Source: an uncultured Bauldia sp.
GTDB lineage: Bacteria > Pseudomonadota > Alphaproteobacteria > Rhizobiales > Kaistiaceae
Assembly (NCBI GenBank): GCA_964641825.1
Contig: CAZXKZ010000001.1
Coordinates: 1-45,654 of the forward strand
Direction: 5' to 3'
DNA length: 45,654 nt
Shown: positions 34,754-37,810 of the stretch, one piece after another
Numbering within the stretch: position 1 is the stretch's first letter
Layout of the letters: each line of letters opens with the position of its first letter
Notes under the pieces: model-generated
The model's database searches: none
The model's input: the letters and a program-made list of their open reading frames with translations, nothing else
Told to the model about the DNA's origin: nothing
Made by a program: the position numbers and the translations under genes

Positions 34754-35325
34754 GACGGGTTCTCCGGGCCGACGGTGAGGTCGAGGGTGAGGGTGAGGCG
34801 GATGGCGCCGCGGCCGTCGAGCCGGTCGAGGTTGGCGATGAGGTCGCTGAGCTGGCGCAGGGCGTCCGGGCCGGCGGCCGGGGGGGCCGGGCGGTCGCGG
34901 TAGCGGGCGGCGGTGGTGGCGCCGCGGGGGCGGATGGGCAGGCCGGCCTGGGCGAAGTAGCGCGAGAGGGTGGCCGAGCTGGTGTTGTGGCGGCGGGCCA
35001 GCTCGGCAAGGGAGAGTTCTTCCTCGACGTATTGCCGGTGGAGGGCGAGGAGCTGATCCTCGGTGAAGAGTTTCCTGGGCATGGCGGTGAGCTGCTCCTG
35101 AATATGGCGCCGGATGTAGTCCGGCTCGAGGCCGAGGCCGTCGCAGTCATCCTCGAAGTTGCGGGACCGGAAGTAGGTCATGGCGTCGAGCACCTGGGGG
35201 TAGGAGCCGTAGAGGACGTCGCGGGCGGCGCGGCGGATGACGGCGCGGATGAGGCGCTGCTCCGGCGAGAGGGCGCACGCGCGGGCGCTCAGAGTGAGAG
35301 ACGGGTCGCCGGGGTGGGGGATCAT
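34750..35325 (-). CDS. HTH-containing hypothetical protein
   Basis: ATGA overlap with the upstream gene. LSLAELARRHNTSSATLSRYFAQAG is HTH-like. Confidence 0.5.
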   Translation of the reverse strand: MIPHPGDPSLTLSARACALSPEQRLIRAVIRRAARDVLYGSYPQVLDAMTYFRSRNFEDDCDGLGLEPDYIRRHIQEQLTAMPRKLFTEDQLLALHRQYVEEELSLAELARRHNTSSATLSRYFAQAGLPIRPRGATTAARYRDRPAPPAAGPDALRQLSDLIANLDRLDGRGAIRLTLTLDLTVGPENPS

Positions 35326-36602
35326 CGGCGCACCTCGTGCAGCGCGGCCGCGGGTTCGGCGCGGACGGCGTAGGTGACGGGGAGGGGGCGGCCGGCGATG
35401 GCGTCGACGGTGCGCTGGATGATGGGGTGGAGGCGGTTGGCGAGCCAGTCGACGGCGTGGTCGTTGGCGACGTGGACGGTGAGGCCGTCGGGCCGGGCGG
35501 CGGCGGTGGAGCCGCGGAGCCACGAGGCGAAGGTGGCGCGGGTCATCTGCATCTCCAGTTCGGCCAGGGCGGCGGGCCAGTGGGGCCAGGGGTCAATGGG
35601 CAGCGGCGGGCGCTCGGCGGCCGGGGGCGGCGCGGCCGTTGGCGGGTCGGGCGGCGGGATGACGCGGGTGGGCATGAGCTCGGGCGGGCCGAGTTCGCCG
35701 CCGGCGGCGGCGTAGACGGCGGCGGCGGTGGCCAGGGGCAGGCTGGGGAATTCGTCGTCGTCGAGGCGGTCGGCGGTGGGGTAGCCGGCCTGGGCGAAGT
35801 CGAGGACCCATTCGAGGCGGCCGAGGAGACGGCCGCGGGCCGAGTCGTCGAGGGCGAGCCAGCCGCGGGCGAGGGCGAGGAGGTCGACGCGCGGGCGCTT
35901 GCCGCTGCGCCACTGGGCGCGGACGAGGCCGACGGGGTTGTGGATGCGGGAGCCGCTCTCGGCCGATTTGAGTTTGACCCAGTAGGCCCAGGCGAGGAGG
36001 GTGGGCGGGTCGAGGGTCGTGCGCTCTTTGGGGGTGAGGGCGTCGTCGAATTCGATCCAGTCGAGGATGGGCGCGAGGGGATCGGCAGCAGCAACAGCAG
36101 CAGGGGCGGAGGCGGCCGGGGGTGCTGGTGCTGTTGGGGGTTCCTCTTTGGGTTCTGTTGATGGTTCTATGGGGGTTCTGGGTGATCGTGGATCACCATT
36201 AGGGTGATCCACGATCACCATTGATGGTGCATGTGGATCACCATTGTGGTGATCGTGGTTCACCACGGCGGCCGGTTGTGGTGATCGTGGTTCACCATTG
36301 GACTCGGCGGCAACGGCCGCGAGCATGGCTTGTTGGTTGACCCAGAAGGCGTTGCTGGCGTGGAGGCCTCCGACTTTGTAGCGGGATTCGCGTCGGATAA
36401 AGCCTTCGCGTTCCAGCTCGGCGACGGTATTGATGACGGTGCGGCGGTTCATGCCGCACCGTTTGGCGATCGTCTCGTAGGTTGGCCAGCAGTATCCGTC
36501 GCGGTCGTTGGCCTGGTCGGCCAGCGACAGGAGTACCAGCTTCTTGAGCGGCTTGCCCTGAAAGTTGATCTTCCAGGCGATTGAAAACAGTTCTATGCTC
36601 AT
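35322..36602 (-). CDS. replication initiator/organiser (N-terminal winged-helix HTH, C-terminal DnaA_N-like segment)
   Basis: N-terminus LLSLADQANDRDGYCWPTYETIAKRCGMNRRTVINTVAELEREGFI. C-terminus TRATFASWLRG...LTVHVANDHAVDWLANRLHPIIQRTV. Iterons lie inside the gene. Confidence 0.6.
   Translation of the reverse strand: MSIELFSIAWKINFQGKPLKKLVLLSLADQANDRDGYCWPTYETIAKRCGMNRRTVINTVAELEREGFIRRESRYKVGGLHASNAFWVNQQAMLAAVAAESNGEPRSPQPAAVVNHDHHNGDPHAPSMVIVDHPNGDPRSPRTPIEPSTEPKEEPPTAPAPPAASAPAAVAAADPLAPILDWIEFDDALTPKERTTLDPPTLLAWAYWVKLKSAESGSRIHNPVGLVRAQWRSGKRPRVDLLALARGWLALDDSARGRLLGRLEWVLDFAQAGYPTADRLDDDEFPSLPLATAAAVYAAAGGELGPPELMPTRVIPPPDPPTAAPPPAAERPPLPIDPWPHWPAALAELEMQMTRATFASWLRGSTAAARPDGLTVHVANDHAVDWLANRLHPIIQRTVDAIAGRPLPVTYAVRAEPAAALHEVRR
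36181..36299. repeat. five iterons of about 20 bp (GGTGATCGTGGWTCACCATT), candidate ori, containing 7 GATC sites
   Basis: Copies at 36181-36200, 36203-36222, 36226-36245, 36248-36267 and 36280-36299. Each has an internal 7-3-7 palindrome GGTGATC nnn GATCACC. Confidence 0.8.
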
Positions 36603-36754
36603 CGCTCACTCGCTACCAGTAAACTAGTCCCTGAAATCACCCCATTCTCACCCTACCCTGTCGGGGTGAGTGGTGATATGCTCACGCGGCCGATTCGACC
36701 GCAACGGGTCGGCTATCGGTCGCCCTGGCCGGTATAGAAAAACGAGAGAACCAA

Positions 36755-37672
36755 ATGAACCTGACTGAAGCCGTGGAGGCGTTTCTGGCGGCGCAGGCGG
36801 GAGAGGTCGCTGTGTCTACGCGGCGGTGGTATGGCCGCCGTCTGTCGGCATTCTGCGAGTTCGTCGGACCGATAGCGCTCGATGACGTGGCCGTGGGGTC
36901 GATCCGCGCGTTTCGCGCCCACCTGGTGGAGCGCGAGTTGAGCGGGCACTACATTCACGGCTGCCAGCGGGCGTTGCGCCGGCTGTTCGCGTGGCTGGTC
37001 GACGAAGGGCTGGCGACTCGCAACGTGGCCAAGGACGTGCCGCTGGTGCGACTTCCCCCGCAAGCCCCAAAGGCCCTGAGTGATGACGATTTGGGACGCC
37101 TGTTGGCGCGCCTGCCGTATGAGGACGTGAGGGACCGGGCGATTATCCTGCTGCTGGCCGACACGGGTTGCCGGGTCGGCGGGCTGTGCAGCCTGACGCT
37201 GGAGTCATTGGACCTGCCGAACCGGTGTGCCGTGGTCATCGAGAAGGGCCGGCGCGGCCGTCGGGTCTACTTCAACGATCTCACGGCCGAGACGATCGCG
37301 CTGTATCTGGCGGTCCGGCCGGAGAGCGAGGCCCCTGCCCTGTTCCTGTCGCGCTCGGGGTCGCCGCTGACGACCAACGGGGTGCGGCTGATGCTGGAGC
37401 GGGTGGGCAAGCGGGCGGGGGTGAAGGGGCGGTGTAACGCGCACTCTTTCCGACACGCCTTTGCCCGGTCGTTCCTGCGCAACGGCGGCAACCTGGCGGC
37501 TCTGGGCCGGCTGCTGGGCCACGCGCCGGGGTCGGCCGTGACGGCTCGCTATTATGCGGTGTGGGATGACCGGGAGCTGCAGGAGTACCACCAACGGTTC
37601 AGCCCGCTGGCGAATGTGAACGGCCGAGCGGGGGACAACCAGTCCCCGGCTCATGAGAGCAAGGGGCTATAG
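36755..37672 (+). CDS. int: tyrosine recombinase / phage integrase (XerC/D-like)
   Basis: ADTGCRVGG (Arg), HSFRHAFAR (H-x-x-R) and LLGH...TARYY (His, Tyr nucleophile). Confidence 0.9.
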   Translation: MNLTEAVEAFLAAQAGEVAVSTRRWYGRRLSAFCEFVGPIALDDVAVGSIRAFRAHLVERELSGHYIHGCQRALRRLFAWLVDEGLATRNVAKDVPLVRLPPQAPKALSDDDLGRLLARLPYEDVRDRAIILLLADTGCRVGGLCSLTLESLDLPNRCAVVIEKGRRGRRVYFNDLTAETIALYLAVRPESEAPALFLSRSGSPLTTNGVRLMLERVGKRAGVKGRCNAHSFRHAFARSFLRNGGNLAALGRLLGHAPGSAVTARYYAVWDDRELQEYHQRFSPLANVNGRAGDNQSPAHESKGL

Positions 37673-37685
37673 AACAGTCGTTCTA

Positions 37686-37741
37686 GTGGCGATGGGACTC
37701 ATAAGCCCTAGGTCGATGGTTCAAATCCATCTGGCGCCACA
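37686..37741 (+). other. tRNA-Met-like 3-prime fragment (anticodon-loop CTCATAA, T-arm gatggttcaaatccatc, acceptor tggcgcca); attP core candidate
   Basis: Read directly. The 5-prime half needed for a cloverleaf is absent. Confidence 0.5.
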
Positions 37742-37768
37742 GGTTCGATGAGCCGGGGACACGTGGAT

Positions 37769-37810
37769 CGGGATGGTCTGTCCCGCGGGGTTCGATTCCC
37801 CGACCACGGC
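37769..37810 (+). other. second tRNA/tmRNA-like 3-prime fragment (stem-loop cgggatggtctgtcccg, T-arm cggggttcgattccccg, accacggc)
   Basis: Read directly. It has a canonical GTTCGATTCC T-loop but no upstream cloverleaf. Confidence 0.35.

Follow-up and report, generated by a model that had tools for sequence, protein, structure and literature searches.

A putative lambda-O-type replication origin inside the initiator gene of a temperate phage that probably infects Chloroflexota

In lambdoid phages, the replication origin is part of the initiator gene: the central part of gene O contains iterons (four in phage lambda and six in Stx phages) and an AT-rich tract (PMC7466680). Here we describe a similar arrangement in contig CAZXKZ010000001.1 of assembly GCA_964641825.1, which was binned as an uncultured Bauldia sp. 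from the α-Proteobacteria. The window that we analyzed is this entire contig (45,654 nucleotides), which encodes a terminase, tail proteins, three methyltransferases, an integrase, and a small replication block. The replication initiator gene (35322..36602, minus strand) encodes 426 amino acids, with a winged helix from the HTH_36 family at the N terminus and a domain similar to DnaA domain I at the C terminus. An earlier note on this DNA proposed that iterons within the initiator gene form a lambda-O-style origin and that their GATC sites might couple it to a Dam-like methyltransferase of the phage. Comparative and codon-level evidence strongly supports the origin but not the coupling. Because the methylation idea is not supported, the locus is less unusual than first proposed. 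As judged from sequence, it appears to be a lambda-O-type origin in a new group of hosts, with a variant C-terminal module on the initiator.

The likeness to the lambda origin includes the location of the putative origin, which is in the middle of the initiator gene and in the part that encodes a linker. It also includes the layout: 4-6 dyad iterons of ~19 bp, about two helical turns apart, are followed in the direction of the gene by an AT-richer tract. The iteron-specific N-terminal domain is exchanged together with the iterons, and this domain is homologous to those of known O proteins (O of phage mEp044 and the O-like family in PHROG). On the other hand, the window's initiator belongs to HTH_36 instead of Phage_rep_O, and there are five iterons instead of lambda's four. 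The candidate unwinding element is only relatively AT-rich, in a genome of 64-69% GC. There is no P-like or DnaC-like gene after the initiator, whose C terminus is a copy of DnaA domain I instead of a P-binding domain, and the host of the phage is probably a member of the Chloroflexota.

The locus can also be compared to iteron plasmids, whose Rep proteins (RepA_N or pSK41 RepA, pi, and RepE) are likewise winged-helix initiators with directly repeated sites and an adjoining unwinding element. However, plasmid iterons are usually intergenic or central in the rep gene, the sequence similarity is negligible, and the window's element is an integrating phage. We believe that the locus is a well-supported origin and initiator for a group of uncultured temperate phages whose probable hosts are filamentous, Promineifilaceae-like Chloroflexota known from metagenomes of wastewater and sediment. 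We know of no description of the replication biology of this group of phages.

The iteron array and its coding sequence

By reading the sequence and by searching for repeats, we identified five near-palindromic dyad boxes of 17-19 bp at 36181-36296, with the consensus TGGTGAWC-N5-GWTCACCA. On the plus strand, the unit of the box is GGTGATC-GTG-GATCACC (17 bp). The GGTG-N9-CACC cores are at 36181-36197, 36203-36219, 36226-36242, 36248-36264, and 36280-36296, and from 36181 to 36280, the starts of the boxes are 22, 23, 22, and 32 bp apart. Numbered in the direction of the gene (minus strand), iteron 1 (36280..36296) reads GGTGAACCACGATCACC on the gene strand and encodes NGEPRSP in frame 0. Iteron 2 (36248..36264), which is 32 bp from iteron 1, is also GGTGAACCACGATCACC, but it is read in frame 2 as VVNHDHH. 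Iteron 3 (36226..36242) is GGTGATCCACATGCACC, in frame 0, and encodes NGDPHAP. Iteron 4 (36203..36219) is GGTGATCGTGGATCACC, in frame 2, and encodes MVIVDHP; its central triplet is inverted relative to that of iteron 5. Iteron 5 (36181..36197), which lies beside a stretch of low GC content, is GGTGATCCACGATCACC, in frame 0, and encodes NGDPRSP. Iterons 1, 2, and 3 contain one GATC each, and iterons 4 and 5 contain two each.

If we allow up to 3 mismatches, the 17-mer is confined to this array within the window. We expected 0.17 occurrences by chance, and none of 100 shuffled sequences reached the observed count. The repeat search and the shuffles thus confirm the earlier report of five copies, 22-32 bp apart, inside the coding sequence of the initiator. 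A more relaxed pattern, GGTG[AC]-N7-[TG]CACC, has 24 matches in the 2.46-Mb bin, and 9 of these are in two clusters: the window's array and the array of a paralogous gene on another contig (C6). There are no other clusters of the motif in the phage or in the bin. The window's cumulative GC skew rises monotonically and gives no signal of an origin.

The boxes alternate between frames 0 and 2 of the gene, and encode NG[DE]xx[SA]P or [MV]V[IN]xxH[HP]. Both this alternation and the 32-22-23-22 spacing are identical in six genes that share the consensus (those of the window, L001, L003, L011, L012, and L013, or the class A genes; see below), although L012 and L013 have one additional box each. The GC content at third codon positions (GC3) is just 0.37 in the window's array, as compared to 0.86 in the rest of the initiator gene and 0.84 in the other genes of the phage. 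If we pool the six class A genes, glycine is encoded by GGT in 20 of 22 cases within the arrays and in just 4 of 126 cases outside them, and the arrays are likewise enriched in the codons CCA (proline), TCA (serine), GCA (alanine), and GAT (aspartate). The six genes average just 70-75% nucleotide identity, yet across their 32 boxes, the eight core bases (GGTG...CACC) are kept at 254 of 256 positions. Identity at third positions reaches 0.72 in the array, as compared to 0.57 for the folded N-terminal domain. Because the boxes are read in two frames, because GC3 drops within them, and because their glycine codons run against the bias of the genome, we conclude that they are under selection as DNA elements and not as a protein repeat. 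The earlier note had described a single linker repeat of the type HxNGDP(R/H). The location in the linker was correct, but with two reading frames there is not one peptide.

The 60 bp after the last iteron (36117..36176, minus strand) is a candidate unwinding element. It has a GC3 of 0.35 and 58% GC, as compared to 0.86 and 69% for the gene; it encodes TPIEPSTEPKEEPP; and it contains GAACC phased every 12 nucleotides. The gene's minimum GC content over 100 bp (49%) is nearby, at 36141-36240. In all 11 homologous genes that we examined, the 60 nucleotides past the last iteron have low GC3 (0.15-0.40) and 38-65% GC, and all 11 have GAWCC phased every 12 nucleotides (at offsets of 9, 21, and 33 in class A). 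The codon choices in these 11 stretches are skewed as well: the ratio of GAA to GAG is 19:3, as compared to 88:250 across the phage, and the ratio of GAT to GAC is 11:0, as compared to 107:297. The position of this stretch, downstream of the iterons in the direction of the gene, is that of lambda's AT-rich tract, and it may be where the DNA unwinds.

Upstream of the initiator gene, the earlier note had reported degenerate boxes at 36635-36675 that it considered to be related to the iterons. These sequences are present, but they are not iteron-like: the half-sites point outward and the spacing differs. They include the dyad CTCACCC-N10-GGGTGAG (36647..36670), in the intergenic region that separates the initiator gene from the integrase gene. 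We considered the promoter boxes (36635-36677) as weak iterons and rejected this idea. The same dyad is found upstream of L013 (iteron class A) and L010 (class B), and because it is shared across different iteron classes, it is not a site for the initiator. Also, no half-sites of class B, C, or D occur ahead of the initiator genes that carry those iterons. The dyad at 36647-36670 is probably the operator of a phage repressor or of another shared regulator, outside of the set of iterons.

Relatives and domains of the initiator

A protein search identified 35 relatives of the initiator, which we aligned. The C-terminal 55% of the protein is conserved throughout. Its N-terminal domain comes in distinct types, each with linker repeats of its own. 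The relatives have 4-6 dyad boxes per gene, at the same position within the gene. We grouped the boxes into six classes. Class A (TGGTGAWC-N5-GWTCACCA) is found in the window, L001, L003, L011-13, and C6; class B (GTGACA..TGTCAC) in L005, L010, and L105/106; class C (TTCTCA-N4-TGAGAA) in L007 and L008; class D (GGTGCA-N5-TGCACC) in L009; class E1 (ATGGACGAAACGTACAT, which is likewise read in two frames) in L095; and class E2 (TTCCG-N4-CGGAAAC) in L096 and L104. These six classes pair with six types of N-terminal domain on a common C-terminal module. This pairing is what one would predict for an N-terminal domain that binds the boxes. The six pairs on one module are also a ready set for studying how winged-helix proteins and iterons recognize each other.

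The N-terminal region of the initiator is homologous to lambdoid O proteins. Amino acids 16-135 are 36% identical (E = 5e-14, tblastn) to a protein from the lambdoid coliphage mEp044 that is annotated as DNA replication protein O. The O gene of mEp044 contains four boxes (GTAGTGACACAGAGTCAC), spaced by 22-23 bp, at the same relative position as in our genes. Similarly, amino acids 1-157 match PHROG 391 (replication initiation O-like; E = 4.9e-26), although, as mentioned above, the Pfam family is HTH_36 and not Phage_rep_O. Given this homology, the class-by-domain pairing, and the codon-level evidence, the boxes are very probably the initiator's own binding sites and part of a lambda-style origin.

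We also noticed that mEp044's iterons (at 1735-1824 of L107) resemble the class B iterons (AGTGACACAGTGTCACC) of the Chloroflexota phages. This hints that pairs of iterons and domains have been conserved across very distant hosts. As a separate observation from metagenome contigs, L001 and L008, which have different classes of iterons, are integrated at the same host locus, beside genes for a UbiA prenyltransferase and a UPF0020 methyltransferase. Despite their different replication specificities, the two seem to use one attachment site.

The second initiator in the bin, on contig C6 (G000:C6:23455-24159, or L100 3455-4159 on the minus strand), is 49-52% identical over the N-terminal 155-166 amino acids. 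In its gene, five iterons without GATC (GGTGAAYAC.GTTCACC) precede 3-4 copies of a near-perfect tandem 12-mer, AGAAGAGAACCG. Its C terminus differs, and its reading frame breaks at a run of about 12 Cs, which could be explained by an assembly error or if it is a pseudogene. A DnaC/IstB-like fragment and a terminase are downstream, and a divergent integrase is upstream.

To describe the architecture of the window's initiator, we combined matches to protein families with an AlphaFold2 model that was built from 20 homologs. The winged-helix HTH_36 domain is at amino acids 1-101 (36300-36602; Pfam E = 8e-16, and also seen in the model). It is followed by a linker at amino acids 103-172 (36087-36296) that is predicted to be disordered (predicted local distance difference test below 50), a helical middle domain in the model at amino acids 176-300 (35703-36077), and the DnaA domain I-like region at amino acids 337-420 (35343-35594), which is supported by BLASTP, a family profile, and Foldseek. 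Within this last region, the model has a small alpha/beta domain at amino acids 342-413. The iterons encode amino acids 103-141, which are within the predicted disordered linker; because the linker appears to be disordered, the DNA there would be free to carry binding sites. The model also has weak fold matches to the structures of plasmid Rep proteins (4PQL, 4PT7, and 5KBJ).

When we scanned named genomes with the alignment of the family, most of the matches were to chromosomal DnaA proteins from Chloroflexota (Anaerolineae, Promineifilaceae, and Ardenticatenaceae). These matches were restricted to amino acids 336-420 of the initiator, at 45-53% identity, and two of the matching open reading frames have the complete set of DnaA domains (DnaA_N, Bac_DnaA, and Bac_DnaA_C). 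In a pairwise BLASTP comparison, the initiator's C terminus and one of these two DnaA proteins were 45% identical across 86 residues (E = 6e-20). We also searched the Protein Data Bank with a profile of the phage family, which matched domain I of DnaA from B. subtilis (4TPS; E = 2.6e-13), and Foldseek superimposed the C-terminal model on 4TPS with a template modeling (TM) score of 0.80-0.82 and a root-mean-square deviation of 1.1-1.2 Å. From the single sequence, the score for Pfam's DnaA_N is 20.1 bits, which is below the cutoff of 24.6 bits. By sequence similarity and predicted structure, then, the C terminus is a DnaA domain I that is closest to those of Chloroflexota: the fold is shared over the C-terminal 85 residues (TM score of 0.8 to the B. 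subtilis domain), which are 45-54% identical to the N-termini of Chloroflexota DnaA. The difference from DnaA is that the domain is at the C terminus of a phage protein with putative iteron-binding activity, with neither the AAA+ domain nor the DnaA-box-binding domain.

DnaA domain I is the module by which DnaA recruits the helicase and its helpers, and it interacts with DnaD, DiaA, and SirA as well. After the initiator, the phage encodes a 192-amino-acid HTH protein and then a Pol-X-like protein; among these annotated neighbors there is no P-like or helicase-loader gene, and no DnaB-type helicase (DnaB_C) was found on the phage contig. Because the contig lacks DnaB and the initiator is not followed by a loader gene, we infer that the DnaA-like domain replaces lambda's O-P-DnaB route. 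If so, then phages might have a route to borrow the recruiting surface of the host's initiator. A literature search did not identify any descriptions of phage initiators with DnaA domain I, and a scan of a collection of viral contigs did not identify any relatives of the initiator. A C-terminal DnaA domain I is also present in three other proteins from mobile elements of Anaerolineales (L041, L063, and L088), which have unrelated N-termini.

We propose the following mechanism. Dimers of the initiator, via their N-terminal winged helices, would bind the five dyad iterons, which are about two helical turns apart. The resulting nucleoprotein complex would destabilize the adjoining 60-bp stretch of lower GC content (36117-36176), which is downstream in the direction of the gene, as lambda's tract is. 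Next, the DnaA domain I at the C terminus would recruit the host's helicase, its helicase-loading machinery, or DnaA itself, in place of lambda's O-P adaptor route. We are fairly confident in this explanation as a whole, that is, an ori-lambda-like origin in a temperate, integrase-bearing phage of ~45.6 kb that would work in this way. More tentatively, an adaptor-binding C terminus might have been swapped for a DnaA domain I from the host's lineage, so that the initiator plugs into DnaA's network of partners without a loader from the phage, and the host's Dam, by methylating the invariant adenine of the half-site, might tune binding to the GATC-bearing subclass of iterons; we consider this extended scenario possible but doubtful.

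GATC sites and alternative explanations

At some well-studied origins, including oriII of Vibrio cholerae, oriR of P1, and oriC of E. coli, GATC sites are clustered, and in oriII there is a GATC inside each initiator-binding repeat. In these Dam-controlled systems, GATC is present in every site, Dam is a core gene of the host, and a dependence on SeqA or on methylation has been demonstrated. For instance, the initiator RctB of V. cholerae has GATC within its iterons, and methylation is needed for the initiator to bind (PMC2865523). The window does have an unusual density of GATC: the seven sites at 36184-36283 are in the densest 119-bp stretch of the window, where ~0.6 are expected given the window's overall frequency (227 per 45.6 kb). 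This agrees with the earlier estimate of well under one. But the seven sites are the product of one repeated unit and not independent events. Furthermore, the earlier note had described a palindrome with GATC in each full iteron. The dyads are there, but GATC occurs in both half-sites of just two boxes, and each of the other three has a single GATC.

Among relatives, the GATC appears to be optional. Across six class A arrays, the W in the half-site TGGTGAWC is T (giving GATC) in about half of cases and A in about half. These arrays have 7, 6, 6, 5, 3, and 3 GATC sites, and which boxes carry them varies. The paralogous array on C6, with GGTGAAC or GGTGAAT half-sites, has no GATC. The dyad cores of the other five classes also lack GATC, including those of a prophage in a Dam-positive genome (G047), although GATC occurs in one spacer of class E1 and in two class B boxes that are weaker. 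Because the count varies from 3 to 7 in orthologs and falls to zero in the C6 paralog and in the dyad cores of the other classes, GATC does not seem to be needed. It is a side effect of those half-sites in which the W is T, and the relatives give no sign of a requirement for it. This is another way in which the locus differs from Dam-controlled origins.

We also considered whether origins in this family are enriched in GATC more generally. Origins outside of class A do have 10.9 GATC per kb, as compared to 3.0 per kb for the remainder of the gene. In the post-iteron stretch, GATC is enriched 5-fold, but over 25 other AT-containing tetramers surpass it there, which implies an effect of composition, so we rejected this idea.

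The D12-class DNA methyltransferase of the phage (368..1288, plus strand) has no demonstrated link to the origin. It scores 62 bits against NCBIfam's dam model, whose cutoff is 114.85 bits, and when it is aligned to DpnM and to Dam from E. coli, the segment with Dam's hairpin signature (NGLxR..FNVPxG) is unmatched. Its best relative of known structure is 7M6B. 7M6B is M.CbeI, which is an N4-cytosine methyltransferase (PMC8616854). By these comparisons, its branch seems to be nearer to M.CbeI than to Dam. Orthologs of the methyltransferase at 78% and 60% identity are found directly after initiators with GATC-free iterons of class E2 and class C. More broadly, a D12 methyltransferase recurs in the replication module of this group of phages: it is directly after the initiator in L008 (4269-5156), L096 (2682-3590), and L104 (326-1411). 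As to the hosts, genuine members of the Dam family, above the curated cutoff, are present in 22 of 41 genomes centered on a Promineifilum genome, which probably represent the host's lineage (see below), with scores of up to 301 bits. Among 41 relatives of the bin, just one encodes such a protein. SeqA was not found in the 41 relatives of the bin, and in the 41 Promineifilum-centered genomes there was just one marginal match of 28 bits.

Could initiation at this origin be controlled by methylation, with the adenines of the half-site GATCs methylated by the host's Dam or by the phage's D12 enzyme so as to control binding by the initiator or re-initiation? Besides the seven sites in 119 bp and the precedent of RctB, it is suggestive that GGTGATC is the most common left half-site in boxes 3-5 of the class A orthologs, that the adenine that would be methylated is the near-invariant A of GGTGA, and that genuine Dam is common in the probable host lineage. 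The sites in the array may indeed be methylated in a Dam-positive host. Nevertheless, about half of the class A half-sites have A instead of T, the C6 array and the dyad cores of five classes do without GATC (even in the Dam-positive G047), the 5-fold enrichment after the iterons is surpassed by that of many other tetramers, and a search for SeqA across 82 genomes gave just the one marginal match. Also, the phage's methyltransferase is not demonstrably specific for GATC, and its 78% identical ortholog accompanies GATC-free iterons. We therefore consider control by methylation to be unlikely. Neither part of the earlier proposal (coupling of the array to the D12 enzyme, and methylation-gated or sequestered initiation) is supported: orthologous arrays do not keep GATC in the same boxes, the enzyme is below the cutoff for Dam and has orthologs beside GATC-free iterons, and searches of both sets of genomes gave nothing for SeqA beyond that marginal match.

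Two other explanations for the array are less plausible still. Iteron-binding initiators commonly autoregulate, and the boxes are ~300 nucleotides into the transcript, so they might be initiator sites that act mainly in autoregulation or as a transcriptional roadblock within the gene, with the true origin elsewhere. But there is no second cluster of the motif in the phage (and just the paralogous C6 array in the bin), the conserved neighbor with low GC3 fits an unwinding element rather than a roadblock, and the homologous O genes of lambdoid phages, which are arranged in the same way, contain established origins, so this explanation is very unlikely. Alternatively, the region encodes a disordered linker that is rich in proline, aspartate, and histidine, and because linkers often contain peptide repeats, the boxes might be a tandem repeat at the level of the protein, or chance low complexity, with no function as DNA. 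This is hard to reconcile with the two unrelated peptides that arise from the two frames, with the dyad symmetry in each box, with the conservation of anti-bias codons across genes that are 55-90% identical, or with the number of copies, which is far beyond the chance expectation, and we give it almost no credence.

Several points weigh against the lambda-like origin as well. Every statement about function, including binding, unwinding, and the recruitment of helicase, is read from sequence. The region that codes for the N-terminal domain adjoins the array, so to some extent they could vary together simply because they are linked in a single recombination module. The stretch after the iterons is AT-rich only in a relative sense, with 58% GC here and 38-65% in relatives, and a conserved (E/D)-P-x-x peptide could account for some of its low GC3. 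And domain I also mediates the self-association of DnaA, so its role in the phage could be regulatory instead of in helicase loading. Even so, we consider the lambda-like origin to be well supported.

The phage contig and its probable host

The two ends of the contig (1-48 and 45607-45654) are an exact direct repeat of 48 bp. The contig is probably a complete phage genome of ~45.6 kb, either circular or terminally redundant, and not a prophage that was excised from a chromosome. 

Although the contig was binned with an α-Proteobacterium, the phage probably infects another phylum. Among 40 relatives of the bin in GTDB, none encode the initiator and none match the phage's DnaA-like domain. Among the 41 genomes centered on a Promineifilum genome, 35 match the DnaA-like domain and two contain prophages from this family. 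The phage's integrase is 77% identical to the integrase of a prophage in a Promineifilum-related genome. Finally, the tetranucleotide composition of the window's contig (C1) has a correlation of just 0.96; C6 is at 0.94, and these two are the sole outliers among the 25 largest contigs, with all of the others at 0.993 or above. In addition, the bin's own fragment of DnaA is only 41% identical to a DnaA from Chloroflexota; the gene is cut by the end of a contig, and its N terminus is missing from the bin. Because of these observations, we think that the contig is probably mis-binned and that the host is probably a Promineifilaceae-like member of the Chloroflexota. In this case, the DnaA domain I on the phage's initiator served as a fingerprint of the host's lineage, and it exposed a probable binning error.

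The tyrosine integrase (36755..37672, plus strand) is divergent from the initiator, and this synteny is conserved in all of the relatives. Overlapping the end of the integrase gene, at 37663-37739, there is a weak tRNA-like match (32.5 bits from Rfam, and not identified by ARAGORN), and it is followed by a fragment that resembles a T-arm at ~37770-37810. This region (37663-37810) is probably the attP site, with pieces of the 3' part of a tRNA.

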